From: Pirellulales bacterium
GTDB taxonomy: Bacteria > Planctomycetota > Planctomycetia > Pirellulales > JAIMBC01
Assembly (NCBI GenBank): GCA_023511675.1
Contig: JAIMBC010000068.1
Location: 1-23,403 of the forward strand
Length of the DNA: 23,403 bases
Direction: 5' to 3'
Part shown: positions 6,836-23,403 of the stretch, one piece after another
Layout of the letters: the number at the start of each line of letters is the position of its first letter
How positions within the stretch are numbered: the stretch's first letter is position 1
The notes under the pieces: model-generated
What the model saw: the letters and a program-made list of their open reading frames with translations, nothing else
Told to the model about the DNA's origin: nothing
Databases searched by the model: none
Program-made: the position numbers and the translations under genes

Positions 6836-8128
6836 CTAGATCGCCGGCAGCTCGAAGCCCTTGCGATATTCGCGGGAGAGGTAGCGGTTGGCCTCGTCGT
6901 CGTGGGGGAAGGTTTCGGTGTGGGGGTCGAATTCCAGGCGTCGGCCTGTGCGGTAGGCGATGTTGCCCAGGTGGCAGAGCAAGGAGGAGTAGTGCCCCTC
7001 TTCAATGTCGGCGATGAGATCCTCAGCGCGGCGGCTCTTCACACAGTCGACGAAGTTCTGGTAGTGGCGGGGCGAGTCGTGCCATGGCTCGCCTGCCGTA
7101 GGGCCGGGCTCGCCGCCGCGGAAAAAGACGCGGTAGCCGTCTCGATCGATCATCAAGAAGCCGCTTTCGCCAAAGAAGATATTGTCGTTGTCATGTCGGT
7201 GGCCGGGCATGCGGTAGGGGGTGAAGTCGCGCTGTTCGTAGACGAACAGCAGGTCGTCGTATTCCCAGGTGACGACCATAGTATCGGGCGTCTCCTGCGC
7301 ATCGCCCCGCGAGCCGAGCTTGGCCCCGCTGGCCGAAACCGCCTTGGGAGCCTTCAGGCCCAGCGCCCAGCGGCCCAGGTCGATCTGGTGCACGCCATCG
7401 TTGCCGATGTCTCCGGTACCGTACTCCCAATGCCAGTGCCACCCGCCGTGGAAGCGGTTGTAGTTGAAGGGACGTTGGGCGGCGGGCCCAAGCCAGAGGT
7501 CGTAATGCACGCCCTCGGGCACAGGCTCGTCTGGGCGGGCTTCCAGGCGGCCGCGCCGCTGGTTGTTGATGGCCTTGACCAGCAGCACCTTGCCGATAAT
7601 CCCCTGCCGCAAGAGTTCCCAGGCCTGCTGGTAGTACGGCACTGCTCGCAGGTTGGTGCCGTGCTGGACGATCCGGCCGTACTTGCGTGCGGCGGTCACG
7701 GCCAGGCGGCCTTCCACAATGTTGTGAGAGGCGGGCTTCTCCACGTAAACGTCCTTGCCGGCCAGGCAGGCCAGAATGGTGGCCGGGGCATGCCAGTGGT
7801 CGGGAGTGGCAATGGCCAGGGCGTCCACGTCCGAGCGGTCCAGCAGCGTGCGAAAGTCGACCACCAGCGGAGGCGCCTTGCCCTGAATGGCGCCGATCTC
7901 CTCGGCCAGCTTGTAGCCGCGGCCCTCGTCCACCTCGCAGACGGCGACCACCTGGCTGTCGGGAAGCGCGGCAAACTGCCGCGCCAGTGCCGCGCCCCGG
8001 CTGGCGCCCAGCACGGCCACGTTCACACGCTCAGAGGGAGCTCTCTTGGCTCCGGCCGCGCCGGCGGCCAGCCAGCTCACGGCCGCAGCCGTGCCCCGCA
8101 GCACGTCTCGTCGAGATAGGGTGTCCAT
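6836..8128 (-). CDS. Gfo/Idh/MocA-family NAD(P)-dependent oxidoreductase with a twin-arginine (Tat) signal peptide (possibly a GH109-like glycosidase)
   Basis: The start MDTLSRRDVLRGTAAAVSWLAAGAAGA (ATG complement of 8126-8128) follows GAGGAG. The sequence carries the SRRDVL Tat motif, the Rossmann stretch VNVAVLGASRGAALARQF and the family EKP motif (DVYVEKPASHN). The track start at 8230 is rejected. The overlapping plus ORF 6812-8119 is antisense junk. Confidence 0.85.
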   Translation of the reverse strand: MDTLSRRDVLRGTAAAVSWLAAGAAGAKRAPSERVNVAVLGASRGAALARQFAALPDSQVVAVCEVDEGRGYKLAEEIGAIQGKAPPLVVDFRTLLDRSDVDALAIATPDHWHAPATILACLAGKDVYVEKPASHNIVEGRLAVTAARKYGRIVQHGTNLRAVPYYQQAWELLRQGIIGKVLLVKAINNQRRGRLEARPDEPVPEGVHYDLWLGPAAQRPFNYNRFHGGWHWHWEYGTGDIGNDGVHQIDLGRWALGLKAPKAVSASGAKLGSRGDAQETPDTMVVTWEYDDLLFVYEQRDFTPYRMPGHRHDNDNIFFGESGFLMIDRDGYRVFFRGGEPGPTAGEPWHDSPRHYQNFVDCVKSRRAEDLIADIEEGHYSSLLCHLGNIAYRTGRRLEFDPHTETFPHDDEANRYLSREYRKGFELPAI

Positions 8129-8320
8129 CTCAGTCTCCTCGCTGGCGGATCTTGGAGCCGGATACCAGCGCGCTCTGCGTGCAGGACGCGCAAGCTGCCC
8201 GCTAGCATACCTGCCGCTGCCCGCGCGCACACCCGTTTTGCAGTCAGACTCGCCCGACCGCTAGCCGGAGGCACCGCTCATGCAGCCGCCCCTCAACAGC
8301 TCGCCCACTGCACGAGCGGC

Positions 8321-9544: not shown

Positions 9545-9663
9545 GGCGGCCGGCTTCCAGGACGTGATCGGGCGCTTCGTATGGACGAACTACCAGCGTA
9601 CCACACCAGGTCTTGTCGGGCCGCCCCTTCCGCTCGTCGGCGAAGAGAAGGCTAGCTGCGATA

Positions 9664-10554
9664 TCATGTCGCCGGCAAGGAACTCGTGCTTGGCCAGCAC
9701 CGTCTGAAGGCGCACGCCGCCACGTACCGCCGTTGAAACACACCTGGTTCAGCTTGGCCGCGTCGGCAATGCTGGCAAGCGGCCTCACGGCTTTCAGAGT
9801 GGTGCGTGCGGCCGTACACGAGTAACGCGCGACGCTTACGGAAGTGCTGCCCGCCAAGGGCATAGTGGCGGCAAGAGGTTGTGGGCTGCACGCACAGGCC
9901 CGTCAGCCACTGCACAAGGTGCGCCGCCCAGCGAATCGAGTTTCGCTTGCTGAACGTGAACAGCCGCTTCAGGCCATCGATCCTGTCGGCCGGGTTCCGA
10001 GTGTCGTGGGCACGCGCCGAAGGCAACTGCAAGAAGCGATCTGTCGGTCCGTCGCTGGTCAGCTTGCTTGCCGGTGGAGCGGCCAACGTGTTCGTCGCCG
10101 CTCTATCTCCCAACATGGCAACGCATGTACGGCAGTAGGCCATGGGGGGAACGGTAGAACACGCCAGAGCGAAGATGCCAACCCCTCGTGCAGGCGAAGT
10201 GTCTGCCGTGGCAGCAGGCCGCGCAGCAGATGCCAGATGGTCGATCTCGCAGATCTGCCATGCAAATAGCGTCACCTAACGAGACAAATCATGCTGCCAG
10301 GTGGTGAATATTGGTGAATATTGTTGCTGGCCAACGCGCGCGAGGATAGAGTGGAAGTGATGCAGACGGGTTCCTCCGAGGTGCCAAGATGCGTGCTGCT
10401 GCACGCCGATTGAGAACCTCTGGGGAGCCGAGGTTGCGTTGAGCAGGATTGCCTGCGCAGCCGTCGGCGCCGCGAGCATGCCCTCTGGGCACGCGTTGGC
10501 AATGGCGGTGTGCAACCACTCGATGAGGCCCGTGCTTCCAGCGCGAGGCTGCAT
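9664..10554 (-). pseudogene. Possible decayed gene: one reverse frame runs for about 297 codons with a single in-frame TAG (complement of 10276-10278); unrecognised
   Basis: Track ORFs 10276-10554(-) and 9664-10275(-) are contiguous in one frame and separated only by a stop. The composition is poor (Arg/Cys/Ser-rich) and I recognised no motif. The stretch lies in a 1.4 kb span without credible genes. Confidence 0.15.
10301..10321. repeat. Tandem direct repeat GGTGAATATT x2
   Basis: Direct reading of ..ccaggtggtgaatattggtgaatattgttgctgg.., a locally AT-rich spot in the gene-poor region. Confidence 0.6.
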
Positions 10555-10710
10555 GGTCTTGCTAGCTCGCGCCCGCGACAGTTTTTAGGGCAGGGCTGGC
10601 ACGGCGTTGCCGCCTCGCAAGGCCTTGTGCCGTTTGCAACCTCGCAATGACGATTTCGGACTGGGTTGAAGAGAAACGCTGCAACCCACGGGGACGGAGT
10701 CCGCGCCATG

Positions 10711-10739
10711 GTCAGAACCTTGCCGTAGTCAGAACTTTG
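10711..10739. promoter_or_regulatory. Direct repeat GTCAGAAC(C/T)TTG x2 (spacer 5 nt), about 300 bp upstream of the first cluster gene; candidate regulator binding site
   Basis: gtcagaaccttg (10711-10722) and gtcagaactttg (10728-10739). Its position at the head of a co-directional 10-gene cluster is the only functional hint. Confidence 0.25.
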
Positions 10740-11033
10740 TGGGGCGTTCGCCTCATCTCCGCAGCATGACGGCATCGCGCGCGTACAGCCGCTCGCCTCT
10801 GCGATGCCCGTGAGACTTGACTCTACCCCATTCGCTTGGCGGCTTGGCGCCGCTGGCGCGTTTCACCTCGTATCAGGGTTTGGGTTTTTGCGCCGACGCC
10901 TTGGCGCAGCAGCTTGCTGCGCTAGCGGCGTTTGACCTGCACATGTTGCCGCACCAAGGGCCCTTGGGTGCCGGGGGGCGGCCATGCAAGGCGGCCACAT
11001 CGACGCGTATCTCTGGTTTATCGAAAGGCAGCC

Positions 11034-12938
11034 ATGCAGCAGGGCCAGCTTGATTTGGGGGCTGTGGTGAGCAGCGCGCCGGCAGCGGTGCGCGGGGAGG
11101 CAGCGGGCGATCCGCTCGGCGTCGCGGCCGCCGAGGTGCGCGGAGGGCCGGCCGTGCGGCGCGTGCTGGTGATTGGCGCAGGGCCGGCCGGCCTGACCGC
11201 GGCCTACGAGCTGACGCGGCAGGGCGTGGCCGTGCAAGTGGTGGAGCAGCACGCGCTGGTGGGCGGCCTGGCACGCACCGAGAGCTACAAGGGCTACCAC
11301 TTCGACATGGGAGGCCACCGCTTCTTCACCAAGAGCCGGGAGGTGGAGCGGTTGTGGCACGAGATCCTGGAAGACGACTTCCTCCGCCGGCCACGTCTCT
11401 CTCGCATCTACTACAACAAGAAGTTCTTCTACTATCCGTTGCGGCCGCTGAACACGCTGCTGGGGCTGGGCCTCTGGGAGAGCCTGCGGATCGCAGCCAG
11501 CTACTTGAGGTGGCAGTTATTCCCCTACAAGCAGGAAGAGACGTTCGAGCAGTGGGTCACCAACCGCTTCGGGCGGCGGCTGTTCGAGACCTTCTTCAAG
11601 ACCTACACAGAGAAGGTGTGGGGCATCCCCTGTACGGAACTCAAGGCAGAGTGGGCAGCGCAGCGCATCAAGGACCTGTCGGTCAAGACGGCCCTGTTGA
11701 ACATGTTCTTCAAGCCGCGGAAGGTGATCAAGACGCTGATCGAGCAGTTCGATTACCCGCGACTGGGCCCCGGCATGTTGTGGAACGCCGTCCGCCGCAA
11801 GGTCGTCGAGCTGGGCGGCCAGGTCCGCACGCAAACCGAGGTGGTGCGGCTGCACCGCAACGGCCGCCGCATCGAGGCGGTGACGTTGCTTGCCGACGGG
11901 CGGCAATCCACGGTCACGGCAGATGCCTTCCTTTCCAGCATGCCCATCAGCGAGGTGATCAAGCGGCTTGATCCCCCCCCGCCGCCCGAAGTGGCCGCCG
12001 CGGCCGCACGCCTGACGTACCGCGACTTTCTCACCGTCTGCCTGATCGTCAACCAGCCTGTGTTGTTCCCCGATAACTGGATCTACGTGCACGACCCCGA
12101 GGTCCGCGTGGGCCGGATCCAGAACTTCAAGAACTGGAGCCCCGACATGGTGCCCGACCCCGGCAAGACCAGCCTGGGGTTGGAATACTTCTGCTCCGAG
12201 GGAGACGCCCTCTGGTCGATGAGCGATGCCGAGCTGATCGAACTAGGAAAGCAGGAACTGGAACGCATCGGCCTGGCCCGCGCGGCGGACGTGCTGGATG
12301 GCTGCGTCTTCCGCGTGGCCAAGTCCTACCCCGTCTACGACTCGGACTACCGAGAGCATCTGAGCGTGGTCCGGCAGTACGTGGAGGGGCTGGAGAACTT
12401 CCAGACCATCGGCCGCAACGGGCTGCATCGTTACAACAACCAGGACCACGCCATGCTCACCGGCATGTATGCGGTGCGCAACCTGCTGCACGGAGAGCGG
12501 CACGACCTGTGGCAGGTCAATGCCGACATGGAGTACCACGAAGAGGTCCGCGCCGCGGGCGTGGCCGCAGATGCGGACAAGCTGGCCGAGGCCATTCAGG
12601 CGGCATTGGCCGGGGCGTTTCTCAAGCTCGATCGCGGGGCCTTTGGCGTGGCGCTGGGCGTGGTGTGCGGCCTGGCGCTGTTTGCCGCCACGCTGGTGCT
12701 CGTGTTGCGCGAAGGCGCCAACGTGGGCGCCACGCTGGGCCTGTTGCGCAACTACTTTCCCGGCTATCGTGTGACGCCGCTGGGCAGCGTGCTGGGCCTG
12801 GGGTACGGCTTTCTCACAGGCTTTGTGCTCGGCTGGACCACGGCCTTTTTCCGCAATCTGGCGGTGTTCCTCTACATGGCCGCTGCGCACCGCCGCAGCG
12901 AGCACGCCTTGCTGCGCAAGCTGCTGGAGTACCTGTAA
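11034..12938 (+). CDS. FAD/NAD(P)-binding flavoprotein of the UDP-galactopyranose mutase-like (Glf/amine-oxidase) superfamily, with a C-terminal 2-TM membrane domain
   Basis: The start ATG at 11034 (gaaagg upstream) is preferred over the track start 10932. It has the dinucleotide fold RVLVIGAGPAGLTAAYEL. The run VGGLARTESYKGYHFDMGGHRFFTKSREVERLWHEIL and YTEKVWG parallel Glf (HIGGNAY..YGAHIFHT.., YTEKQWG). The C-terminal 130 aa are hydrophobic (GVALGVVCGLALFAATLVLVL.. and GSVLGLGYGFLTGFVLGW). Confidence 0.8.
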   Translation: MQQGQLDLGAVVSSAPAAVRGEAAGDPLGVAAAEVRGGPAVRRVLVIGAGPAGLTAAYELTRQGVAVQVVEQHALVGGLARTESYKGYHFDMGGHRFFTKSREVERLWHEILEDDFLRRPRLSRIYYNKKFFYYPLRPLNTLLGLGLWESLRIAASYLRWQLFPYKQEETFEQWVTNRFGRRLFETFFKTYTEKVWGIPCTELKAEWAAQRIKDLSVKTALLNMFFKPRKVIKTLIEQFDYPRLGPGMLWNAVRRKVVELGGQVRTQTEVVRLHRNGRRIEAVTLLADGRQSTVTADAFLSSMPISEVIKRLDPPPPPEVAAAAARLTYRDFLTVCLIVNQPVLFPDNWIYVHDPEVRVGRIQNFKNWSPDMVPDPGKTSLGLEYFCSEGDALWSMSDAELIELGKQELERIGLARAADVLDGCVFRVAKSYPVYDSDYREHLSVVRQYVEGLENFQTIGRNGLHRYNNQDHAMLTGMYAVRNLLHGERHDLWQVNADMEYHEEVRAAGVAADADKLAEAIQAALAGAFLKLDRGAFGVALGVVCGLALFAATLVLVLREGANVGATLGLLRNYFPGYRVTPLGSVLGLGYGFLTGFVLGWTTAFFRNLAVFLYMAAAHRRSEHALLRKLLEYL

Positions 12939-12950
12939 CAGGCCCTCACC

Positions 12951-13277
12951 ATGCCCGAAGCCCTCAAGCCGCCGCAGGAGGCGGTGCTGACGAAATTGCT
13001 GAGGCTGAATGCCGCGCTCTATGGATTGGTGGCTGGCCTGGCCGCGGGCAGCGGACTGGCCGCCGCCACGCTGTGGCTGGTGATCAAGGGCGGTGTGCAG
13101 GTGGGGAAGCACCTGCAGTTGCTGCACCATTACTGTCCCGGTTACACCGTCACGGCGGGCGGCGCGCTGGTCGGCTTTGCCTACGGCTTTGGGTACGGCT
13201 TCGCGGCCGGCTACCTGGTCGCGCGCATCTACAACCTGGTGGTCGACTGGCGTGAACGACGCAAGCCTGCTCGCTGA
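12951..13277 (+). CDS. Small 2-TM membrane protein, paralogous to the C-terminal domain of the upstream flavoprotein
   Basis: The 108-aa ORF starts 13 nt after the upstream stop. LRLNAALYGLVAGLAAGSGLAAATLWLVIKGGVQVGKHLQLLHHYCPGYTVTAGGALVGFAYGFGYGFAAGYLVARIYNLVV aligns by eye with LKLDRGAFGVALGVVCGLALFAATLVLVLREGANVGATLGLLRNYFPGYRVTPLGSVLGLGYGFLTGFVLGWTTAFFRNLAV of gene 11034-12938. It has no strong Shine-Dalgarno site. Confidence 0.6.
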   Translation: MPEALKPPQEAVLTKLLRLNAALYGLVAGLAAGSGLAAATLWLVIKGGVQVGKHLQLLHHYCPGYTVTAGGALVGFAYGFGYGFAAGYLVARIYNLVVDWRERRKPAR

Positions 13278-13415
13278 TCGGCCGATGCCTCGCGTCCTGT
13301 CACCGCGAGGACGTCGGCACCCATCTCCTCTGCTTGGCAAGAGTTTGGGGGCCCTGGCGGCCATTCGCCCGGACGTGCCTGGCGGGCCCTCGAGTTGAAG
13401 CACGAGCACGTGGAC

Positions 13416-14312
13416 ATGGCCACCCTGCCGCAAACAGCCGCTGTAGTCCCCGACTTGACCGTGATCATCCCCGCTTACAACGAGGAAGCAGGCATCGTCC
13501 CCACGGTCAACGAGCTGCGCGCGGCCCTGGCGGGCGTGCCGCTGCGGAGCGAGCTGCTCGTGGTGGACGACGGCTCTACCGACGGCACCGCCGCCGCCGC
13601 AGAAGCCTTGGGCGTGCGCGTGATCCGCTTGCCCAACAACGAGGGCTACGGCGCGGCCATCAAGGCCGGCATCCGCGCTGTGCCTGCCGATCTGATCGCC
13701 ATCATCGACGCAGACGGCACCTATCCTCCCGCGGCTCTCGCCAAACTTGTCCATGCCATGGCCGACGCAGACATGGCCGTGGGCGCACGCGATATCCAGG
13801 GGCGCAACATCTCGTTCTTCCGCCGGCCGGCGAAGTGGTTCCTGAACTGGCTGGCCGGCTATCTGGCCGGACGCAAGATCCCCGACGTGAACTCCGGATT
13901 GCGCGTGATGCGCGGCAGCCTGGTGCGTCAGTTCCTCCCGCTGCTGCCCGCGGGCTTCTCCTTCACCACAACCATTACCCTCAGCATGCTGTGTACGGGC
14001 CGCCGCGTGCATTACGTGCCGATCGAGTACCGTGCCCGCGTGGGGCATTCGAAAATCCGCCCCGTGCACTTCACGGCCTTTCTCGTGCTTGTGCTGCGTA
14101 CGGTGATGCTGTTCAACCCGCTCAAGGTGTTTCTTCCGCTGGGCGGGCTGGTGTTTCTGGTGGGCATGGGCAAGCTGGTCCAGGATCTGGTGCTGAAGAA
14201 CCTTTCCGAAACGGCCGTGATGGCCTTTCTCTCCGCGCTGGTCATCTGGTCGCTGGGGTTGCTGGCAGACATGGTCGCCCGCACGCAGCTATTGCGGAAT
14301 GGATCGAACTAG
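13416..14312 (+). CDS. GT2-family polyprenol-phosphate glycosyltransferase (DPM1/GtrB/ArnC-like) with C-terminal TM helices
   Basis: The N-terminus LTVIIPAYNEEAGIVPTVNEL..LLVVDDGSTDGT..IRLPNNEGYGAAIKAGI..DADG.. shows the GT-A hallmarks (DDGS, DAD). The C-terminus carries two hydrophobic helices, as in GtrB/ArnC. The ATG at 13416 is preferred over the track's TTG at 13395; the start is uncertain (GTG at 13410 is also possible). Confidence 0.85.
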   Translation: MATLPQTAAVVPDLTVIIPAYNEEAGIVPTVNELRAALAGVPLRSELLVVDDGSTDGTAAAAEALGVRVIRLPNNEGYGAAIKAGIRAVPADLIAIIDADGTYPPAALAKLVHAMADADMAVGARDIQGRNISFFRRPAKWFLNWLAGYLAGRKIPDVNSGLRVMRGSLVRQFLPLLPAGFSFTTTITLSMLCTGRRVHYVPIEYRARVGHSKIRPVHFTAFLVLVLRTVMLFNPLKVFLPLGGLVFLVGMGKLVQDLVLKNLSETAVMAFLSALVIWSLGLLADMVARTQLLRNGSN

Positions 14313-14325
14313 GGAGGCACGCCGG

Positions 14326-15405
14326 ATGTGGGAGGCACCGTCATGGCGGCACGCCGGCGAGGGGAACGCAGGGATGCGGCCGCCTCGCGGCGTGCGCGCG
14401 ACAGGCCGCGCATGGGTTGCCGCCGCGCTGCGGCTGGCGGCCAGCGCCGTGCTGCTTTCCGGTCTCTGGATGGTTCTGCCGCGACAGCGGCTGGTGGCGG
14501 CCTTGGCAGGCGTGCCCTGGGCGGCCTGGGCTGCCGCGGTGCCGGCCTTTTTGTTGTTGCACCTGCTGGGTGCCTGGAAGTGGCGGTGGACGGCCAATCT
14601 GGCCGGCAGCGGCCTGCAATTGCGTGACGCCGTCCGCTGCTACTATGCGGGGCTGTTCGGCAATACTCTGCTGCCCTCGATTGTGGGCGGAGACGTGTTG
14701 CGGGCAGCCCTGGCGTGGCGGCGAGTGCGTTCGCCCGCCGGGCTCGTGCTGGGCAGCCTGGCCGACCGCATGCTGGACGTGCTGGCACTGGCCGTGCTGG
14801 CCGCAGGGGGGGGTGTGTTGGCCGCCAGCGAGGCAGGTACTGCCACACCCCTTGTGTTCGGCTCGTTGCTGGCCGGCGGTCTGGCCGCCGCGCTGGTGCT
14901 GGGAGCAGGGCTGTGGCTGTTCAGATTTCGCAAGCTCTCGTGGCGGTGGCGCCGCAAGTTGGCACTGGCGCGGCGTGCGGGGCGGCTGTTGTACCAGCAA
15001 CGTGCGCGGCTGCTGGTGAGTCTGGCAGCGTGCACGATGCTGCAAATGGGATTGATGGGACTCAACCTTTGGCTAGCCAGTTTTTGCGGACTGCGCGCCG
15101 CATGGCGGGTGTGGCTCTTTGCGTGGCCCCTGGGAAAGCTGGCGGCCATGGTGCCGGTGACGCAGGGCGGCATCGGCATCCGCGAGGCTGCGCTGGCAGG
15201 CCTGTTGCGGCCGTTTGGCGTGCCGGCGGCGCTTGCCGTGGCAGCCAGCCTGGTGTTTGAAGGCGTGATCATTCTGGGCAGTCTGGCCGGCGGATTGCTG
15301 GCAGTGTGGCTCGGCCGCTGGGGGAGCCCTTGCGTGGCGCAGCACGGGGTGGCCGCAGTACCGGGTGTGCGTGCGACTGCGTGGGAGGCACCGCATGCAG
15401 GCTGA
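14326..15405 (+). CDS. Polytopic membrane protein of the lysylphosphatidylglycerol-synthase-TM / UPF0104 'flippase-like' family, the usual partner of GT2 DPM1-like enzymes
   Basis: The ATG at 14326 lies 8 nt after AGGGAGG (14311-17) and 13 nt after the GT2 stop. The protein has multiple hydrophobic helices, Arg-rich loops and the family-like motif ..PLGKLAAMVPVTQGGIGIREAALAGLL... The track start 14299 lies inside the upstream gene. Confidence 0.7.
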   Translation: MWEAPSWRHAGEGNAGMRPPRGVRATGRAWVAAALRLAASAVLLSGLWMVLPRQRLVAALAGVPWAAWAAAVPAFLLLHLLGAWKWRWTANLAGSGLQLRDAVRCYYAGLFGNTLLPSIVGGDVLRAALAWRRVRSPAGLVLGSLADRMLDVLALAVLAAGGGVLAASEAGTATPLVFGSLLAGGLAAALVLGAGLWLFRFRKLSWRWRRKLALARRAGRLLYQQRARLLVSLAACTMLQMGLMGLNLWLASFCGLRAAWRVWLFAWPLGKLAAMVPVTQGGIGIREAALAGLLRPFGVPAALAVAASLVFEGVIILGSLAGGLLAVWLGRWGSPCVAQHGVAAVPGVRATAWEAPHAG

Positions 15406-16903
15406 CGAGCGTGCGCCACAGGTTGCGGATCGCATGCCCGCGGCATCGCAGGCGATGGAGTTGCAACCGCGGGCAGGCGCGGCGGCCCGGCCGCACATTG
15501 CCGTGCTGGGTGCGGGGCCGGCGGGCGTGGCGGCAGCGTGGCAACTGGCGCGCCGCGGCCTGGCGAGGGTCACGGTGCTGGAGGCGTGCGACGCTCCCGG
15601 CGGCAACGCGGGGAGTTTCGAGTTGGAGGGAGTGTATTGCGATTACGGCAGCCACCGGCTTCATCCGGTGGTAGAGCGGCGGATTCTGCGGGATCTGCGC
15701 GAGCTGCTGGGCGACGAGCTATTGTTGCGCCAGCGGCGCGGGCTGATTCGGCTGGGGGGCCGATGGATTCGATTTCCCCTGCGGCCGTTCGATCTTGCGG
15801 CGAAGCTACCGCCGCGCTTCCTGCTGGGCGTGATGCTGGATGCGGCGCGGAGGTTCGTCCCTGGGGGGAATCATCAGCCGGAGACATTTGCCTCGGTGCT
15901 GCGGCGCGGGCTGGGAGACACCATCTGCCGCGAATTCTATTTTCCCTATGGGCGGAAGATCTGGGGAGTGGAGCCGGATGCGTTGGACGCGGCTGCGGCG
16001 CGGCGGCGCGTCTCGGCGGGGACCGTGGGCCGCATGCTGCGCAAGGTGGCGGGCCAGCTCCCTGGCCTGCGTTCGGCCATGGCGGGAAAGTTCTACTATC
16101 CCCGCCGGGGGTACGGGCAGATCAGCGATGCCTTGCATGCCGCGGCGGTGCGTGAGGGGGCCGAGTTTCGCTTCGGCGCCCGGGTCACAGCCATTGAACG
16201 TCAGGCGAACGGCGTCGCCTGCGTGCGCTTCGAACAAGGGGGCTGTGAGCAGCGCTTGTCGGCAGATTCCGTCTGGTCCACGCTGCCGCTCAACTTCACC
16301 CTGCGCTGCGTGCAGCCTGCTGCCCCGCCCGAGGTGCTCGCCGCCGCCAGCCGCCTGCGCTTTCGCGGCATGCTGCTGATTTACCTTGTGCTGGCACAGC
16401 CGCGGTTTGGCGATGCCGACGCGTATTATTTTCCCGAGCCAGACATTCCCATCACGCGGCTCTCGGAGCCGAAGAACTATTCGGGTGCCGATGCACCGCG
16501 CCACTGCACCGTGTTGTGCGCGGAACTTCCCTGCGACTCGCAGGACATGCTCTGGCAGCAAGACGACGCCAGCCTGGGACGCAGCGTTTGCCAGTGGATC
16601 CGCGCCGCGGGCCTGCCGCTGGCGGATACGGTGCGGCGGGTGGAAACGCGCCGGCTGCCGCACGCCTATCCGATCTACGACGTGGGGTACGCGCAGCACC
16701 AGCGGCGGGTGGAGGAGTGGCTGGGAGGCATCGAGGGCCTGGTACTGCTGGGGCGGCAAGGGCTGTTCGCACACGACAACATCCACCACACGCTGGCCAC
16801 GGCCTATGCGGCAGCGGACTGCCTGGGCGCAGACGGCTGCTTTGACCGGCGGCGCTGGGGCGAGTGCCTCGAGCGTTTTCAAGACCATGTGGTCGAAGAT
16901 TGA
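15395..16903 (+). CDS. FAD/NAD(P)-binding flavoprotein, a paralogue of gene 11034-12938 (Glf-like superfamily) without the membrane tail
   Basis: It has the HIAVLGAGPAGVAAAWQLARRGL dinucleotide fold. GGNAGSFELEGVYCDYGSHRLHP parallels GGLARTESYKGYHFDMGGHRFFT. The ATG at 15395 overlaps the upstream stop (TGA 15403-15405), and alternative downstream ATGs are possible. Confidence 0.8.
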   Translation: MQADERAPQVADRMPAASQAMELQPRAGAAARPHIAVLGAGPAGVAAAWQLARRGLARVTVLEACDAPGGNAGSFELEGVYCDYGSHRLHPVVERRILRDLRELLGDELLLRQRRGLIRLGGRWIRFPLRPFDLAAKLPPRFLLGVMLDAARRFVPGGNHQPETFASVLRRGLGDTICREFYFPYGRKIWGVEPDALDAAAARRRVSAGTVGRMLRKVAGQLPGLRSAMAGKFYYPRRGYGQISDALHAAAVREGAEFRFGARVTAIERQANGVACVRFEQGGCEQRLSADSVWSTLPLNFTLRCVQPAAPPEVLAAASRLRFRGMLLIYLVLAQPRFGDADAYYFPEPDIPITRLSEPKNYSGADAPRHCTVLCAELPCDSQDMLWQQDDASLGRSVCQWIRAAGLPLADTVRRVETRRLPHAYPIYDVGYAQHQRRVEEWLGGIEGLVLLGRQGLFAHDNIHHTLATAYAAADCLGADGCFDRRRWGECLERFQDHVVED

Positions 16904-18055
16904 ATGGCAGACATGAACATCCTGCAACGCATCGCACGCCACGTCCGCCTGACGCTCAAGAGCTACCGGCCTGCCAGCACGCCGCCCTTTCTGGTGCTGT
17001 TCATCAACTCCATCTGCAACATGAAGTGCGACCACTGCTTCTACTGGCAGCAGCTCAATCAGCGCGATGACTTGACCTTCGAGGAGCTGGTGCGGCTCTC
17101 GGAGGAGCTAGGACGCGTCGAAACGTTGAACCTGTCCGGGGGCGAACCATTCTTGCGCAAGGAGTTCGCGCCCATCTGCCGCCAGTTCATCCGCCGCAAT
17201 GGCGTGCAAGAGATCTACGTGCCCACGAACGCCTATTACACCGAGCGGACCGCCAGCGCCGTCCGCGACGTGTTGCAGGAGCGTTCGCTGCGGCTTTTGG
17301 CAGTGGAACTCTCGCTCGACGGCATGCCGGAGTTTCACGACACGTTCCGCGCCACGCGCCATGCGTTTGCCAGAGCCATGGATACCTATGAAGCGCTGGC
17401 AAGGCTCCAGCAGCAGGACCGCCGGCTGCAGATCCATGCCAACTCCTGCGCCACCCAGCTCAATATGGAAGAGATCAAGCGGCTGACCACCTATCTGTTC
17501 GACCGCTGCCCGCAAATCTCGCACCATAATCTGGCCATCATCCGGGGCGATCGCAAGAACCCGACCCTGCAAGGCCCGGCGCTGGAGGAGTACCGCGCCC
17601 TCTACGCCTACATGCGCCGCTTATGGGCGCCGCGCGAGGCGGCACGCCTTGGCGCCATTGTGGAACCGATGTTGCAATGGACCAAGCTCAAGGCCGCCGA
17701 GACGCAGGCCCAGTACGTGCCCTGCCGGGCTGGCGTGTTGAGCGCCGTGATCCATGCCAACGGAGACGTGGCCGTTTGCGAGCAGCGTCCGCCGATCGGC
17801 AACCTGCGGCGGCAGACGTTCACCGAGATCTGGCAGTCTCACGTGGCGCAGCAGGTGCGGTGCTCGATTCGCGCCAAGGAATGCTACTGCACCAATGAGG
17901 TCTTCATGTGGCCGAGCATCGTGTTCCAGCCCGCGCACCTGGTCAGGGCGATGGTCGGAGCGAGGGCGTGGCAAAAGGCCTCGCCGCTACCCCAGCAGGA
18001 ACGCGCCGCTTACGCGGACGCGGTCGATGTGCCCGCCAACCACAGAGCTTCCTAA
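16904..18055 (+). CDS. Radical SAM enzyme with a C-terminal SPASM/twitch-type auxiliary cluster domain
   Basis: The CxxxCxxC motif lies in [17 protein letters not shown] Gly-rich SAM motif sits in [11 protein letters not shown]-terminal Cys cluster spans ..[36 protein letters not shown]... The start ATG immediately follows the upstream stop (tgaATG at 16901-16906). Confidence 0.85.
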
Positions 18056-18151
18056 CCCAGCGCCGCACGCCGTCTCGGCAACGCCTCACGCCTGGCGCCA
18101 CGCCGGGGCGGAGATAACCCTCCTGACGCGCGGCGCGCAGGTTCCCACGAG

Positions 18152-19276
18152 ATGACCACTGACCGCAACGAGGCCGAACACCTCTCCCCTGCTGGACGAT
18201 CCGCCGGCGGCGACGCGCAGCCTCTCCTCCAGGACAGCGTGCCGTCGATCACGTTGATCGATCCTTCGGTTGCAGCCAGCAACCTGGGCGACTTCATCAT
18301 CATGGAGGCCGTACGCCGGGAGCTGGCGGAGCTGCTGGCCCGGCTACGCTGTTTCACGGTGGCCTCGCACGAACGCATGACGCGCTTCAGCCGCGGCCTG
18401 ATACGCCAGTCTGCCGTTGCCATCGTGGGGGGCACCAACCTACTTAGCTCAAGAATGTGGTTCCGCTGCCCGTGGAAGCTGACCCCGCTGGACGGACTGC
18501 TCTGCCGGCGGATCGTGCTCATGGGCTGCGGCTGGTACCAGTTCCAGCGCCGGCCCGACCCGTATTCCCGCTGGCTGCTGCGGAGCATCCTCAGCGCAAC
18601 GCACGTGCATTCCGTGCGAGACAGCTACACGCTCGCCAGGCTGCGGTCGATCGGCATCACCAACGCGCTCAACACGGGCTGTCCCACGCTGTGGTCCTTG
18701 GACCCAGAACGATTGCGTACCATCCCCGTGGAGCAGGGCCATGCCGTGCTCACCGCGCTCAACACCTACTTTCCCAACCGCAGGCTCGACGGCGAGTTGC
18801 TCCAGCTCCTCTGCCGTGCGTATCGCAAGGTCTATCTCTGGCCGCAGAACCCGGCCGATTACCCTTATGTCCGGCAGTTCGGTCTGCGCATCCACTATGT
18901 CGACCCCACCTTGCAGGCACTGGACGAACTGCTCGTGCGCGAGGCAGGCATCGATTACGTGGGCAACCGCCTGCATGCGGGCATTCGTGCCCTGCAACAC
19001 GGCGTGCGTTCGCTGATTGTGGAGGTCGACAACCGCGCACAGATGATGGGGGCTGATTTTGGCTTGCCCACGGCGGCGCGGGCGGATCTGGCGGGTATTG
19101 CCCGATGGATCGAACGCTCCCCTCCGCTGGCGCTGCGCCTGCCGCGGGCGGCGATCGATGAATGGAAGCAGCGGCTTTGGGCATCGCTGGGCATCGTTGA
19201 GCCGGCTGGCGGTGCGGTGGCGCGTGCCTACCAGCCGGCGGCGCGCAGGGCGGAGTGCGGCAGCCATGATTGTTGA
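18152..19276 (+). CDS. Polysaccharide pyruvyl transferase family protein (CsaB/WcaK/ExoV-like)
   Basis: The N-terminal ITLIDPSVAASNLGDFIIMEAVRREL fits the family's NLGD motif. ..VGNRLHAGIRALQHGVRSL.. fits the C-terminal conserved block. The match rests on recall of the Pfam PS_pyruv_trans pattern. Confidence 0.65.
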   Translation: MTTDRNEAEHLSPAGRSAGGDAQPLLQDSVPSITLIDPSVAASNLGDFIIMEAVRRELAELLARLRCFTVASHERMTRFSRGLIRQSAVAIVGGTNLLSSRMWFRCPWKLTPLDGLLCRRIVLMGCGWYQFQRRPDPYSRWLLRSILSATHVHSVRDSYTLARLRSIGITNALNTGCPTLWSLDPERLRTIPVEQGHAVLTALNTYFPNRRLDGELLQLLCRAYRKVYLWPQNPADYPYVRQFGLRIHYVDPTLQALDELLVREAGIDYVGNRLHAGIRALQHGVRSLIVEVDNRAQMMGADFGLPTAARADLAGIARWIERSPPLALRLPRAAIDEWKQRLWASLGIVEPAGGAVARAYQPAARRAECGSHDC

Positions 19277-20931
19277 GGCCGGAACGCTTCAGGACGGCGC
19301 TGAGGTGGCAGCGGACGTCTGCATTATCGGAGGGGGGGCTGCGGGCATCACGCTGGCCCGCGAGCTGTCCCACACCAGATTGCGCGTTTGCCTCCTAGAA
19401 GGCGGCGGCCTGAGCTACGAGGCGGAATCGCAGGCGCTGGCAGCCGGCGAAACCAGCGGCGTGCCCTATTTCGACCTGGCGGAAAGCCGGTTCCGCATGC
19501 TGGGCGGCAGTACCTACCGTTGGGGTGCACGGGGACGCCCCATGCAGCCGATAGACTTTCAACAGCGGCCTTGGGTACCGCTGAGCGGGTGGCCGATCTC
19601 GCTAGCGGAGCTGGAACCGTATTATGATCGGGTCCACGAGCTGATCGGCTGGCACAGGCCGTTCCACTTCGACGGAGGCGTGTGGCGGCATTTCGGCACC
19701 CAGCCGCCGCCACTGGATGAGCGGAGGCTGGCATACTGTGCCTTCCAGTTTGGCAAGACGCTGCTGTTCGGCACGCACTTTCGCAAGCCGCTCGAACAGG
19801 CCGCGAACGTGCGGGTCTATCTGCACGCCAATGCCGTGTTGCTGGCAGCCAACGGAGCGGGGAATCATCTGGAAGCGGTCGAGGCGCGCAAGCCTGGCGG
19901 CAGCTTCCGCGTGCGGGCTAAGTACTATGTGCTCGCCTGCGGCGGTATCGAGAACGCCCGACTGCTGTTGCTGTCCAACGACGTGGTGCCCAGCGGCCGG
20001 TGCAACGAACGGGACCTGGTGGGCAGGTACTTCATGGAGCATCCAACCTTCACGGCAGGCGAGCTGGAGACGGCCGATCCGTGGCGCGTGCTGGATCTGT
20101 TCACGCCCGGCCTGTTGCGCCGTAGGCTGGTCGAGGTAGGCATGTGCCTTTCTCCCGAGGTGCAGGGCGCGCGACGTTGTTGCAATGCCGTTGTGCACGT
20201 CAAGCCGGTCGTTGACGGCGACGCCACGCAGGCACTGCGAGAGCTGCTGGCCGGACTGGTGCGGCGGCAGGCGCCGGACCACACGCGCCGCCTCTTGCGC
20301 ACCCTGCTACGCGACCCGGGAGGAGTGATGGCCAACCTGTTACGCCACGCGCTGGGCCGGCCCAAGCGCTTCCGCATCCAAGGGCTGCGCGCAGAGGTGC
20401 GCACGGAACAGGAGCCAAATCGCGCCAGCCGCGTGACGCTGGCTGAAGCTCGAGACGCCCTGGGGCTCCGCAAGGCGCATGTGCACTGGGTACTGTCCGA
20501 ACGAGACCGCCTCACCATGCGCGTCATGGCCGAGGTGTTTGGCCAGGAGATGGAGCGTCTCGGCCTGGGACGCCTGCTGCCAGGCGCCTGGATCAGGGAG
20601 CACTCTGAAGCCTGGCCCGCTCACCCGGGTTTGCACTACCATCACCCCCAACTCCGCCAGCCCCAACGCACAAGACAGCGGCTGGCCCCCGGACCTGGTC
20701 GGCGGCCACCACCACATGGGAACCACCCGCATGCCGCAGTCCCCGCACGATGGAGTGGTAGACCCAGACTGCCGCGCACACGCCGTGGACAATCTGTTCA
20801 TCGCGGGAAGTTCCGTGTTCCCCACAGCGGGTTTTGTCAATCCCACCCCCACCATCCTGGCCCTGACCCTGCGGCTGGCCGAGCACATCAAGCACCGTTG
20901 TGCCCTGCCAGGCGCTGACGGGGCGCCGTGA
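19266..20931 (+). pseudogene. GMC-family FAD oxidoreductase (choline-dehydrogenase-like) interrupted by an apparent +1 frameshift between about 20617 and 20700
   Basis: The N-terminus DVCIIGGGAAGITLARELS..RVCLLEGGG..RMLGGSTYRWGARGRP is GMC-like in frame 0 (ATG 19266), and that frame stays plausible to ..GAWIREHSEAWPAHPG (about 20630). The conserved GMC C-terminal block GHHHMGTTRMPQSPHDGVVDPDCRAHAVDNLFIAGSSVFPTAGFVNPTPTILALTLRLAEHI is only in frame +1 (track ORF 20479-20931). C5, C4 and C5 homopolymers lie in between (20645-49, 20661-64, 20686-90). Confidence 0.7.
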
Positions 20932-21019
20932 AGGTCGGCATGACCAGCCGCCTTTGCCTGGCCACGCCTCTACGGTGCGTGTGCGCCTTGCAGCTACAAC
21001 CACCAAGCGAGCTACGTCG

Positions 21020-22426
21020 ATGAGCATCATGTCCCAGGCAGTGGATGTATCCCAACTGCTGAACGAGGGTTCGTATTACATACTGGACCAATACGCGCTG
21101 CGCGAAGAGATGTATGCCAAGGTGGTGGACACCTTCCTGGACGGCGTGGCCGCGATTGCCGGCCGGGCGTGCCGCGATCGCGTGGCCGCAGCGGGTTTAG
21201 GACAACTGCACAGGTTTTTTCCGGTGGAGGATGTGCTGCTGCTCGAGGACTACTTGCTGCGCCGGCTGCGCAACGACCTCTATTACTGGTCGTTCCGGGT
21301 GGGGCGCGAGACTCTGGGCCTGGCTGGCACCTTCTACGTCGACTATTTGATTGTGATTCGTATCCACTATCCGTTCATGATTGCCCGGCAGGCGCGGCGA
21401 GTGAAACATCCGGCCAAGTCCCTGAAGGAGCAGGCACGTCTGCTTCTCGCCGCCGCCCGAGACTGGCGGCTGCTGGCCAATCTGCTGGGCAAACGCCTGC
21501 GAACTCTGTTTCGCAAGCGCTCCCGCAAGGACTCCGGCGCTTTCAACCCCAACGATTATCATCGCAGCCTGCCTGACCCGGCCCGCTCTCACGGCCCGCA
21601 TGTCGACACCTGGTACGGCCACTCGTACGATGGCGTCAACCTCTGGTGGGCCATCGATGGCGTCAACGAAGACAATACTGTCATTCTCTATCCCGAGGTG
21701 TTTGGACACACACTCCCCTTCGATCCGCGGAGCATGTACGTGGCCCCCGGCATCACTCTGCCCCGGCCTGTCAAGCCCGCGCTGGAGCCGGGCCAGCTCC
21801 TGGTCTTCAATCCAGAAACACTGCACGGCACGCAGGTCAATATTTCGGACCGCACGCGCGTGGTCATCAGCACGAGGCTCAACCCGGACGTGCCCCGCTT
21901 CGACCCCCACGCCCCATTTCACTTCGAACATTGGTTCAGCTCCCAAGATCTGGAGCAGCGTCGCTTCGGCAGGATCCGCGTGTTTGCACGCACCAAGTAC
22001 CAGGGACGGCGCAGGCAAGTGCGGCCGCGCGCCCCTCTTCAGGAGACCCCGGCAGCCATCGCCTGCCCGCAAAGCGCAAGGCTGGGCCAGCCGGTTCGGG
22101 TATGTGCCTCGCGCGAGCTGGAGCAGGGCGGCCGGCTGGCCGTGGACCTGGAGAACGCCAGGCTGCTGTTGGTTCGTTGCGGGAACGCCGTGGTGGCATA
22201 CTCGAGGGTGTGCCCCCATCTGGGGATCGATCTGGCCGACGGCCACTATGACGGGACACGAGTGTTCTGTCCGGGACATGGGATTGCATATTCGGTTGAG
22301 GACGGGTCATCTGGCTGTGCAGCATTTCGCCTGCGTGCGTATCACGCCTTTGAGCAGGATGGGGCCATTTTCGTGGAGCCGGCGGGGGCGGATGCGGCGT
22401 CCTGTCCGGTGGCGACGCAGGAATGA
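21020..22426 (+). CDS. Fusion protein: phytanoyl-CoA dioxygenase (PhyH)-like Fe(II)/2-oxoglutarate oxygenase domain plus a C-terminal Rieske [2Fe-2S] domain
   Basis: The PhyH-like motifs are HVDTWYGH (HxD) and later LHGTQVNISDRTRVVISTR (H..N.S..R). The Rieske motif is CPHLG, then 15 residues, then CPGHG, in ..YSRVCPHLGIDLADGHYDGTRVFCPGHGIAYS... The ATG at 21020 is preferred over the track start 20900. It has no strong Shine-Dalgarno site, so the start is uncertain (in-frame GTGs lie at 20966 and 20972). Confidence 0.65.
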   Translation: MSIMSQAVDVSQLLNEGSYYILDQYALREEMYAKVVDTFLDGVAAIAGRACRDRVAAAGLGQLHRFFPVEDVLLLEDYLLRRLRNDLYYWSFRVGRETLGLAGTFYVDYLIVIRIHYPFMIARQARRVKHPAKSLKEQARLLLAAARDWRLLANLLGKRLRTLFRKRSRKDSGAFNPNDYHRSLPDPARSHGPHVDTWYGHSYDGVNLWWAIDGVNEDNTVILYPEVFGHTLPFDPRSMYVAPGITLPRPVKPALEPGQLLVFNPETLHGTQVNISDRTRVVISTRLNPDVPRFDPHAPFHFEHWFSSQDLEQRRFGRIRVFARTKYQGRRRQVRPRAPLQETPAAIACPQSARLGQPVRVCASRELEQGGRLAVDLENARLLLVRCGNAVVAYSRVCPHLGIDLADGHYDGTRVFCPGHGIAYSVEDGSSGCAAFRLRAYHAFEQDGAIFVEPAGADAASCPVATQE

Positions 22427-22446
22427 GGGCGGCGGAGACCTGCACC

Positions 22447-23403
22447 ATGAACGGAGCCGGGCTACACGTGGGCATTGATGCCACTACCTGGTCGAACGAT
22501 CGCGGCTTTGGCCGGTTTACGCGAGAGTTGGTGGCGGCACTGGCCGTACGGCAGCGTGGCATCCGCTACACGCTGCTGTTCGACCGGCCGCCGCAGGGGC
22601 GGCTGCCCGAGGGCGTACAGGTGATCTGTGCGGGCACGGACCGTTCGCTGAATGAGTCGGCCGTAGGCGATCGCTCCCGGTCGTTCGCCTATTTGTGGCG
22701 GATGGGGCGAGCGGCAGTCCGCGGCGGATTCGACCTGTTTTTCTTTCCCGCTGTCTATTCCTACTTCCCGATCCTGTCGCGCATACCCTGCGTGGTCTGC
22801 TACCACGATGCCACGGCGGAGCGCATGCCGGAGTTGTTGTTCCCCAACCGCTGGAACCAGCGGTTGTGGCGGCTGAAGACAGCGCTGGCGCGCTGGCAGA
22901 CGGCGCGAGCCATGACCGTCTCGCGCACCTCGGCCGAGGATCTGCACCAGCTTCTCGGTATTCCCAGGGAGCGCATTGATGTCGTGACCGAGGCGGCGGA
23001 TCCCGTGTTTTGCGTGTTGGAGGACGCCACGGCGGCACGGCGTGCGCGGCAGCGGCATGGAATACCCCTTGCGGCGGAACTGCTGGTCTACGTGGGCGGC
23101 ATGAACCGCCACAAGAACGTGCTGGGCCTGTTGCAGGCCATGACTCGTGTCACTGCCGCGCGGCCAGCGGTGCACCTGGCCGTGGTGGGCGACACGTCGG
23201 GACAGGGTTTCTGGGACAACGTTCCCGAACTGCTGCGCTTTGCGCAGAGCCAGGCATCCCTGCGGGAACATGTCCATTTTACAGGCCGTGTGGAGGATGC
23301 TGAGCTGGTCGCCCTGCTGAACTCGGCCGCGGCGCTGGTCCTCCCTTCGTTGTGGGAGGGTTTCGGCCTGCCAGCCGTGGAGGCCATGGCCTGCGGCTGT
23401 CCG
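22447..23403 (+). CDS. GT4-family (GT-B) glycosyltransferase; N-terminal roughly 319 aa, running off the window end
   Basis: The ATG at 22447 lies 20 nt after the upstream stop. The open frame to the window end translates MNGAGLHVGIDATTWSNDRGFGRFTREL.. and ends ..LVLPSLWEGFGLPAVEAMACGCP, the EX7E/GT4 signature region. It is absent from the track because it is incomplete. Confidence 0.85.
   Translation, partial: MNGAGLHVGIDATTWSNDRGFGRFTRELVAALAVRQRGIRYTLLFDRPPQGRLPEGVQVICAGTDRSLNESAVGDRSRSFAYLWRMGRAAVRGGFDLFFFPAVYSYFPILSRIPCVVCYHDATAERMPELLFPNRWNQRLWRLKTALARWQTARAMTVSRTSAEDLHQLLGIPRERIDVVTEAADPVFCVLEDATAARRARQRHGIPLAAELLVYVGGMNRHKNVLGLLQAMTRVTAARPAVHLAVVGDTSGQGFWDNVPELLRFAQSQASLREHVHFTGRVEDAELVALLNSAAALVLPSLWEGFGLPAVEAMACGCP

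Follow-up and report, generated by a model that had tools for sequence, protein, structure and literature searches.

A probable surface-glycan locus of a Pirellulales bacterium joins a lipid-linked sugar module to mutase-like flavoproteins and unusual tailoring enzymes

The amino-sugar systems of the Arn/Lgm/Flm/PpgS-Rv3779 type share a polyprenyl-phosphate glycosyltransferase of family 2 (GT2), a deacetylase or deformylase, a flippase and a GT-C transferase. Arn handles 4-amino-4-deoxy-L-arabinose (L-Ara4N), Lgm of Bordetella glucosamine (GlcN) and FlmF2/NaxD/FlmK of Francisella galactosamine (GalN), with ArnD, LgmC and NaxD carrying out deacetylation in their respective systems. Gtr-type decoration is represented by GtrA/GtrB/Gtr(type) of Shigella, by CsbB/GtcA/YfhO and by the lactococcal Csd proteins. 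In mycobacteria, decaprenyl-phospho-arabinofuranose is a lipid-linked furanose donor for GT-C arabinosyltransferases, and DprE1, a flavoenzyme of the vanillyl-alcohol-oxidase type, epimerises ribose. Here, we compare with these systems a gene cluster on contig JAIMBC010000068.1 of the Pirellulales bacterium assembly GCA_023511675.1. The stretch of DNA analysed, referred to below as the window, is 23,403 nucleotides (nt) long, and the cluster consists of ten co-directional plus-strand genes, A to J, located between positions 11034 and 23403.

The locus probably directs the synthesis of an exopolysaccharide- or O-antigen-type glycan on the surface of an uncultured high-GC bacterium, and it includes unusual tailoring enzymes. 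The best-supported description of its core is a lipid-phosphate-sugar and GT-C decoration module similar to those of the Arn, Gtr, Lgm and PpgS systems, combined with cytoplasmic assembly by glycosyltransferases of families 4 and 2 (GT4/GT2) and with Wzx. The reading draws on gene content, domain families, conservation of active-site residues and conserved gene blocks, all of which were observed directly. The Pfam gathering cut-offs were passed by Amino_oxidase (twice, with NAD_binding_8), Glycos_transf_2, LPG_synthase_TM, Radical_SAM with SPASM, PS_pyruv_trans, GMC_oxred_C, and PhyH with Rieske. The family assignments proposed in an earlier sequence-only reading of the window thus held throughout, that of gene J by way of GT4 models and a full-length copy in a related genome.

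The cluster is real and operon-like, and the gene coordinates and junctions given in that earlier reading proved exact. The stop codon of gene C at 14312 is followed by the ATG of gene D at 14326, overlaps of 11 nt are found at 15395–15405 and 19266–19276, and the stop of gene E at 16903 abuts the ATG of gene F at 16904 with no spacing; the remaining intergenic gaps measure 12, 117, 96, 88 and 20 nt. Two starts are ambiguous, that of C (TTG 13395 or ATG 13416) and that of D (14299 or 14326). The GC content of the window is 62–69%, and every called frame carries a coding signal (third-position GC of 0.75–0.88 versus second-position GC of 0.42–0.59). Terminator-like sites were not enriched (9 versus 8.4 ± 3.2 in shuffled sequence), a promoter scan likewise stayed at background, and an Rfam scan of the window returned zero RNA families. 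Tight co-directional packing is ordinary for an operon; what goes beyond chance is the conservation of the same gene blocks across phyla.

The cluster had been taken for a self-contained set of ten genes, which it is not: it runs past the end of the window, and the part contained in the window is the first 12.4 kb of at least 17 co-directional genes spanning about 21 kb. This follows from two related loci. The closest record, a JGI metagenome contig (L001), is 98.4% identical to the window at the nucleotide level over 16.5 kb and continues with a complete GT4 gene (403 aa), a GT2 gene (296 aa), a GT2-like gene (318 aa), a Polysacc_deac_1 deacetylase and a PMT_2 protein of the GT-C class. A second locus (L086) has the same gene order, with 72–86% protein identity for genes A to I, and extends further to a Polysacc_synt (Wzx) gene, another GT4 gene and a Phosphodiest-family protein. 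It is the downstream GT-C transferase, deacetylase and Wzx that give the GT2/flippase pair of the window its meaning.

We surveyed loci anchored on two of the cluster's enzymes. For the radical S-adenosylmethionine (rSAM) enzyme, gene F, the loci of the best 80 of 524 genomes were screened by tblastn with the cluster proteins, and the recurrent order was A-B-GT2c-GT2b-GT2-like-deacetylase-rSAM-Wzx-...-PMT_2-GT2(C)-[D]-E. In the 42 loci with full 10-kb flanks, the GT2-like gene was present in 69%, the deacetylase in 64%, Wzx in 62%, B in 55%, A and PMT_2 in 52% each, E in 40% and C in 38%. The pyruvyl transferase and the PhyH-Rieske protein were found in 5% each and the glucose-methanol-choline (GMC) oxidoreductase in 2%; these three genes, with frequencies of 2–5%, are optional accessories. 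A metagenome scan anchored on the PhyH-Rieske protein yielded 44 loci with a very regular order, GT2(C)-D-E-deacetylase-[GMC]-pyruvyl transferase-PMT_2-PhyH-Rieske-GT4-...-Wzx. Here, 18 loci of at least 10 kb contained the pyruvyl transferase (89%), E and GT4b (78% each), C, the deacetylase and PMT_2 (72% each), GMC (28%), A (22%) and the rSAM gene (17%).

Adjacency was counted as the number of loci with a pair of genes side by side among the independent loci, from about ten phyla, that hold both. The pairs C-D (24/25), D-E (23/25) and GT2b-GT2-like (23/24) are nearly invariably adjacent, followed by pyruvyl transferase-PMT_2 (16/18), A-B (27/32), PMT_2-PhyH-Rieske (17/22), GT2-like-deacetylase (35/46), rSAM-Wzx (34/55) and deacetylase-rSAM (30/49). 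The locus is put together, mosaic-like, from blocks found again in hundreds of genomes of about ten phyla, namely (i) A-B, (ii) GT2/flippase-like/E, (iii) pyruvyl transferase/PMT_2/PhyH-Rieske, and (iv) GT2b/GT2-like/deacetylase/rSAM/Wzx. The neighbourhood comparison suggested in the sequence-only reading, whether the membrane-anchored flavoprotein, the rSAM enzyme and the PhyH-Rieske protein occur together elsewhere, has a positive answer (L005, L095, L101 and the L001/L086 lineage), and this trio is a rarer combination of otherwise independent blocks.

Gene A has relatives of about 67% identity in other glycan loci. One locus (L087) contains a compact, contiguous A-B-PMT_2-GT2-LPG_TM-E set followed by two GT4 genes and AlgX-like genes. 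In another (L088), A-B-PMT_2 lies among Wzz, Bac_transf, a deacetylase with DUF3473, a FemAB-like gene, Wzx and an asparagine synthase. In the isolate Pseudohalocynthiibacter sp. F2068 (L085), the series C-D-E-deacetylase-GMC-methyltransferase-pyruvyl transferase-PMT_2-PhyH-Rieske-GT4 adjoins Poly_export (Wza) and Bac_transf. This isolate and Rhodobacterales bacterium HKCCE2091 make at least two cultured carriers of the pyruvyl transferase/GT-C/PhyH-Rieske block. No description of this gene combination or pathway was found in the literature or among curated models, in agreement with the earlier statement that it matches no described pathway. The combination is not a one-off, for its blocks occur in hundreds of genomes.

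Gene A (11034–12938) encodes 634 amino acids (aa) ending in a two-helix membrane tail (approximately residues 497–618), and gene E (15395–16903) encodes a soluble paralogue of 502 aa (30% identity, E 2e-46), so that both the paralogy and the membrane anchoring of one copy, as read from the sequence earlier, were borne out. Protein A falls in NCBIfam NF005548 (PRK07208.1-4), whose only name is 'hypothetical protein', with 698 bits versus a cut-off of 389. The description of the pair as Glf-like stands in part. Neither protein reached Pfam GLF (PF03275; A 18.2 and E 19.1 bits versus 26.3) or TIGR00031 (A 41 and E 23 bits versus 304), yet UDP-galactopyranose mutases (UGMs) are their closest solved relatives. 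By phmmer, the best relatives of A in the Protein Data Bank (PDB) are the Aspergillus fumigatus UGM (AfUGM; E 2e-22) and also the Trypanosoma cruzi UGM, and the best for E is the T. cruzi enzyme (E 1.6e-18); in the same searches with both proteins, bacterial Glf scored 1e-10 to 1e-5 and amine oxidases about 1e-6. These eukaryotic-type mutases (PDB 3uka/3ute and 4dsg) are about 500 aa long, which accounts for the length of A and E that had been noted as unusual, and A matches them in its three-domain fold. They differ in that identity is only 21–22%, with the GLF and TIGR00031 cut-offs missed, and by the two-helix membrane tail that A has, along with the paralogous partner B.

The AlphaFold model of A has a mean pLDDT of 73, with most of the core above 85 and the C-terminal helices at about residues 497–618. 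In a Foldseek search with this model, the comparison proposed earlier for separating a mutase from an amine-oxidase fold, UGMs ranked first (TM-score 0.75–0.82), but the Myxococcus xanthus protoporphyrinogen oxidase was nearly equal (E 2e-26, TM-score 0.78). As the fold by itself does not discriminate, a comparison of residues was required, for which the AfUGM numbering was taken from printed PDB alignments. In AfUGM, H63 is the histidine of the flavin loop, and R182, R327, R447, Y453 and N457 hold the sugar diphosphate. In the 36–37 orthologues of A, the counterparts of H63 (in a GGH loop), W167, R182, W315, Y317, R327, R447, Y453 and N457 are invariant. In the 39 orthologues of E, invariance extends to the counterparts of H63 (as GSH), W167, R182, Y317, R327, Y334, R447 and N457. 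AfUGM N163 and N207 are not retained. Because the mutase residues are conserved, A is read as a probable pyranose/furanose mutase acting on a sugar-1-phosphate ester, and E may be read as a divergent relative of it.

Gene B (12951–13277), which follows A, encodes 108 aa with two hydrophobic helices and is a paralogue of the A tail (41% identity over 93 aa, A residues approximately 519–611, E 1e-14). It belongs to no Pfam family and has just a weak holin_4-like NCBIfam match below the cut-off; at a permissive threshold, Pfam gave nothing meaningful for B or for the A tail. Three tandem B-like genes precede a distant A homologue (34–36% identity) in L017 (5723–6627), L095 (369–1348) and L101 (458–1386), which shows that the small B-like partner is amplified in some lineages.

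Gene C (13395–14312) encodes a 305-aa protein with a Glycos_transf_2 domain at residues 22–150 (110 bits) and hydrophobic helices within 221–291. An N-terminal GT2 domain followed by two C-terminal transmembrane helices in about 300 aa is the architecture of GtrB, ArnC and the DPM synthases. All of its NCBIfam matches are below threshold (AglJ, 113 versus 325 bits; dolichyl-P hexose transferase, 80 versus 375; ArnC, 72 versus 529; PpgS, 61 versus 370). C is a probable polyprenyl-phosphate sugar synthase, and its earlier description as a polyprenol-phosphate GT2 agrees with the C-terminal helices and with AglJ, ArnC and PpgS as best matches. The second GT2 protein of L001 (16817–17707, 3′ of the window end; 296 aa) likewise has two C-terminal transmembrane helices, and the locus may thus encode two GtrB-like polyprenyl-phosphate sugar synthases. 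Gene D (14326–15405) encodes a multi-pass protein with at least six hydrophobic segments that matches PF03706 (93 bits) and passes TIGR00374, the 'flippase-like domain' model (55 bits versus a cut-off of 43); this and its near-constant position beside C uphold the flippase-like partner assigned to C. Gene J (22447–23403) is cut by the window end. It matches GT4-type models, its full-length L001 copy (403 aa) passes Glycos_transf_1 and Glyco_transf_4, and its relatives in distant phyla are 57–69% identical.

Gene G (18152–19276) encodes a probable polysaccharide pyruvyl transferase (PF04230, 73 bits versus 25.3). Its likeness to the CsaB/WcfO-type transferases lies in the PS_pyruv_trans domain; the CsaB equivalog TIGR03609 was not reached (39 bits versus 213), and the context here is free of SLH proteins. 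CsaB pyruvylates a lipid-linked repeat, a precedent for pyruvylation at the lipid stage (PMC6030368). Such action on a lipid-linked repeat fits the linkage between G and the GT-C gene, and the adjacency of G and PhyH-Rieske to PMT_2 gives indirect support to the earlier proposal of a pyruvylated, modified lipid-linked sugar.

Gene H (19266–20931) belongs to the GMC family, as had been proposed, in that both parts of such a protein were found; in the window, however, the gene is split between two frames. The FAD part is read in the same frame as 19266, whereas GMC_oxred_C (71 bits) follows that of the open reading frame 20479–20931. Relative to L001, there is a 1-nt insertion near 20650, beside a run of C and about 50 nt upstream of the GGHHHMG motif, which could be a sequencing error or mark a real pseudogene. 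The gene is intact elsewhere, with 558 codons in L001 and 537 aa in L086, and the best NCBIfam match of the intact protein is pyranose oxidase, a weak match far below its cut-off.

Gene I (21020–22426) is a fusion of a PhyH-type Fe(II)/2-oxoglutarate oxygenase domain with a Rieske [2Fe-2S] domain. The PhyH part displays the HxD...H iron triad, the arginine for 2-oxoglutarate and the double-stranded β-helix fold; the Rieske part has the fold of such domains and the CxH...CxxH ligands. Structural neighbours of the protein are 8–30% identical to it in sequence. We know of no characterised enzyme with PhyH and Rieske domains fused in one chain. The closest described counterparts are sugar-modifying oxygenases of the PhyH subfamily (KanJ, AviO1, EvdO1/O2, HygX) and stand-alone Rieske ferredoxins. 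The family is rare, with 174 matches in a collection of 5.8 billion proteins, and a set of 1.84 billion contains 76 representatives at E ≤ 1e-30, a number that rises to 257 at E ≤ 1e-10. A gene for a prokaryotic cytochrome b561 (Ni_hydr_CYTB) is found inside the cluster, beside GT4b or PhyH-Rieske, in L002 (7751–8491) and also in L092, L113, L115 and L117; it may be a membrane electron carrier for redox enzymes.

Gene F (16904–18055), the rSAM enzyme, has a Radical_SAM domain (55 bits versus 29.5) with an invariant CxxxCxxC motif at C38/C42/C45 and a C-terminal domain that passes SPASM (40 bits). The only further invariant cysteines are C202, C274, C292, C327 and C329. The full seven-cysteine SPASM motif is absent from this protein: C274-x12-G-x4-C292 forms the first half, and CxC stands in place of CxxCx5Cx3C. 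Because there are four or five further invariant cysteines, with CxC for the second half-motif, the domain looks like one of the Twitch type with a single auxiliary cluster. No NCBIfam cut-off was passed. The nearest solved relatives are SkfB and MoaA, with YydG also among the nearest, and a profile search against the PDB returned only distant Twitch/SPASM relatives, insufficient to name the reaction. A BtrN-like dehydrogenation, or an epimerisation with the invariant C202 as hydrogen donor, is speculation.

The rSAM family comprises more than 3,289 clusters at E ≤ 1e-10, with relatives in the 524 species-representative genomes from which the survey was drawn. The best 80 of these are 60–70% identical across about ten phyla and include Gemmatimonadota, Acidobacteriota, Planctomycetota, Chloroflexota, Myxococcota, Alpha-, Beta- and Gammaproteobacteria and Binatia. 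No exact counterpart of the window's own rSAM protein came up in a look-up. The gene is duplicated in some genomes: in tandem in an alphaproteobacterial metagenome-assembled genome (L030, 10001 and 11506), and at two positions about 12 kb apart in another (L011/L013, contig CAVUZR010000011.1). The sole cultured genome among the best 80 loci is that of Ruegeria sediminis, which gives no functional clue because its rSAM gene is outside a glycan locus.

These features can be arranged in a model for which all substrates, the order of the steps, the acceptor and the rSAM reaction are what we infer. C, working at the inner side of the membrane, would load a sugar, probably an N-acetyl-hexosamine, on polyprenyl phosphate, the downstream deacetylase would strip the acetyl group, and D would carry the lipid-linked sugar across the membrane. 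In the periplasm, the downstream PMT_2 (GT-C) protein would transfer it to a glycan made by the GT4/GT2 enzymes and exported via Wzx. A and E would convert a sugar-1-phosphate ester to ring-contracted (furanose) forms, with E soluble and A anchored to the membrane through both its tail and B. The pyruvyl transferase, the PhyH-Rieske protein, the GMC oxidase and the Twitch-type rSAM enzyme would modify that sugar by attaching a pyruvate ketal and by oxidation or rearrangement at C-H and C-OH positions. As the pyruvyl transferase and PhyH-Rieske genes flank the GT-C gene tightly, their arrangement suggests that both act on the GT-C enzyme's lipid-linked sugar or its product. Likewise, a UGM-like pair with one member tethered and provided with a small paralogous partner suggests that furanose formation takes place close to the lipid carrier. 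A bolder version, which we hold to be unlikely but worth stating, is that A-B-PMT_2-GT2-LPG_TM-E constitutes a new route to a ring-contracted or rearranged polyprenyl-phosphate sugar, made at the membrane by flavoenzymes that work on the lipid-linked sugar or one step before it, and used by the GT-C transferase in the periplasm, with the rSAM enzyme (about 65% identical across some ten phyla) and the PhyH-Rieske fusion performing C-H chemistry on the sugar for which there is no studied precedent. This gene set is contiguous in L087 and dispersed in the window's locus.

Several observations weigh against the surface-glycan reading and its details. Neither the window nor L001 and L086 showed an initiating phosphoglycosyltransferase, a Wzy or an export gene. 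Only A, through a family of 'hypothetical proteins', and D, through a generic domain model, pass a curated NCBIfam cut-off, and the links to ArnC, AglJ, PpgS, CsaB and PgaB are all below threshold. With protoporphyrinogen oxidase nearly equal to UGM in Foldseek, the fold alone is no proof of mutase chemistry, and E has lost two mutase residues (W315 to Ala and Y453 to His) in all 39 orthologues. The GMC gene is disrupted in the window, where the FAD part and the GMC_oxred_C part with the catalytic histidine are not continuous. Finally, in Ruegeria sediminis CAU 1488 the rSAM gene (L079, 9935–11176) lies outside any glycan locus, directly upstream of ffh and preceded by two open reading frames (273 and 497 aa) of no Pfam family.

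Other destinations for the sugar have to be weighed against this reading. The GT2/deacetylase/flippase/GT-C module could place an amino sugar on lipid A or the lipopolysaccharide core instead of on an exopolysaccharide. The component list matches (a GtrB/ArnC-like GT2, a deacetylase and a GT-C enzyme of the PMT_2/ArnT superfamily) and ArnC is among the best matches of C, but ArnC is reached with only 72 bits of the 529 needed and PMT_2 reaches no ArnT model. Furthermore, the module sits among three to five further glycosyltransferases and Wzx, and elsewhere it adjoins Wza, Bac_transf and Wzz, all of which makes the lipid A destination improbable. We regard as somewhat less probable still that PMT_2 glycosylates S-layer or envelope proteins from a polyprenyl-phosphate sugar, in the manner of actinobacterial Ppm1/Pmt O-mannosylation. 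PMT_2 and PMT are families of protein O-mannosyltransferases, and a GT2 polyprenyl-phosphate-sugar synthase is encoded beside PMT_2; yet the loci showed neither a target protein nor an S-layer gene, the best NCBIfam matches of PMT_2 are weak (33 bits), and Wzx, several GT4/GT2 genes and the pyruvyl transferase indicate a polymer.

It is very unlikely that the locus tailors an isoprenoid lipid, such as a hopanoid or carotenoid glycoside, with HpnE/CrtI-like flavoproteins, an HpnI/CrtQ-like GT2, an HpnL-like D and an HpnH/HpnJ-like rSAM enzyme. NCBIfam does return HpnE and crtI_fam for A and E and HpnB for C, and HpnL belongs to the same Pfam family as D. These matches are weak, however (HpnE 59 and 50 bits versus 283, crtI_fam 58 versus 238, HpnB 31 versus 379), whereas the flavoproteins have UGMs as closest solved relatives and conserve the residues by which these bind phosphate and sugar. 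No match to a cyclase or to a squalene or phytoene synthase was found in about 130 loci, which were screened with the cluster's proteins, or in the Pfam-annotated neighbourhoods, and such a pathway would not account for the deacetylase, PMT_2, Wzx and pyruvyl transferase. We give hardly any credence to the idea that the rSAM/SPASM enzyme matures a ribosomal peptide and lies beside glycan genes only by chance of position. SPASM is typical of peptide maturases, and SkfB and YydG are among the nearest solved relatives, but the loci offer no precursor-like small open reading frame, the sole small gene, B, being a membrane paralogue of the A tail. The four or five invariant auxiliary cysteines are Twitch-like, as in the small-molecule enzymes BtrN and MoaA, and the conserved neighbours of the rSAM gene are the deacetylase, GT2-like genes and Wzx.

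The stretch of about 1.5 kb 5′ of gene A (9545–11033) contains no convincing gene, its long open reading frames having no family matches; the L001 counterpart has calls of 54–122 aa only, and Rfam gave no match. Further upstream, a plus-strand gene (4820–6046) encodes an XRE helix-turn-helix fused to Peptidase_M78 (ImmA/IrrE-like) and is followed after 18 nt by a weak PIN-domain gene (6064–6600, plus strand), a pair that looks like a toxin-antitoxin or regulatory module. On the minus strand, 1348–2790 encodes a 480-aa SPFH/Band_7_1 protein with a long Ala/Pro/Met-rich linker and about 130 C-terminal residues of no Pfam family, and 6836–8230 encodes a Gfo/Idh/MocA oxidoreductase. The latter is probably periplasmic because its N-terminus (…LSRRDVLRG…) resembles a twin-arginine signal.

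Hundreds of genomes carry the blocks described here; they come from abundant lineages of soils, sediments and the sea that are for the most part uncultured, among them Acidobacteriota, Gemmatimonadota, Planctomycetota, Chloroflexota, Myxococcota and several Proteobacteria, whose surface glycans shape soil aggregation and biofilms and whose glycan chemistry is almost unexplored. The locus unites four families with no characterised member: (i) the membrane-tailed PRK07208 UGM-like flavoproteins, (ii) the strongly conserved Twitch-type rSAM enzyme, (iii) the PhyH-Rieske fusion, and (iv) the LPG_synthase_TM flippase-like partner of a GtrB-type GT2. As at least two cultured carriers exist, the predictions are directly testable. 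If true, they could bring to light sugar chemistry that is new and a lipid-linked donor of a new type, and with a lipid-linked furanose, Gram-negative bacteria would have a widespread equivalent of the logic by which mycobacteria use lipid-linked arabinofuranose. The locus would be less notable if it were one more variable exopolysaccharide locus.

Compared with the described systems, the locus combines familiar and new elements. It resembles the Arn/Lgm/Flm/PpgS-Rv3779 systems in that a GT2 of about 300 aa (C), a Polysacc_deac_1 protein, the multi-pass D and PMT_2 are found in one co-directional locus, but none of its components reaches an ArnC, PpgS, AglJ or ArnT model. Furthermore, Arn-type systems use an ArnE/F or GtrA flippase, whereas the flippase candidate of the present locus is of the LPG_synthase_TM type, and they have no counterparts of the UGM-like flavoproteins, the pyruvyl transferase, the PhyH-Rieske protein, the GMC oxidoreductase and the rSAM enzyme. 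With Gtr-type decoration the locus shares the general scheme in which synthesis of a lipid-phosphate monosaccharide in the cytoplasm is followed by flipping and by its transfer, through a GT-C enzyme, to a finished glycan outside; there, however, unmodified glucose or GlcNAc is transferred, whereas the present module has as many as six tailoring enzymes in tight linkage. The parallel to the mycobacterial arabinofuranose route would be one of logic only, a flavoenzyme-dependent furanose donor on polyprenyl phosphate that is consumed by GT-C enzymes outside, with nothing here homologous to DprE1, DprE2 or UbiA. The general kind of system is thus already known, while the set of tailoring enzymes and the association of UGM-like proteins with a membrane tail and a GT-C transferase are new.

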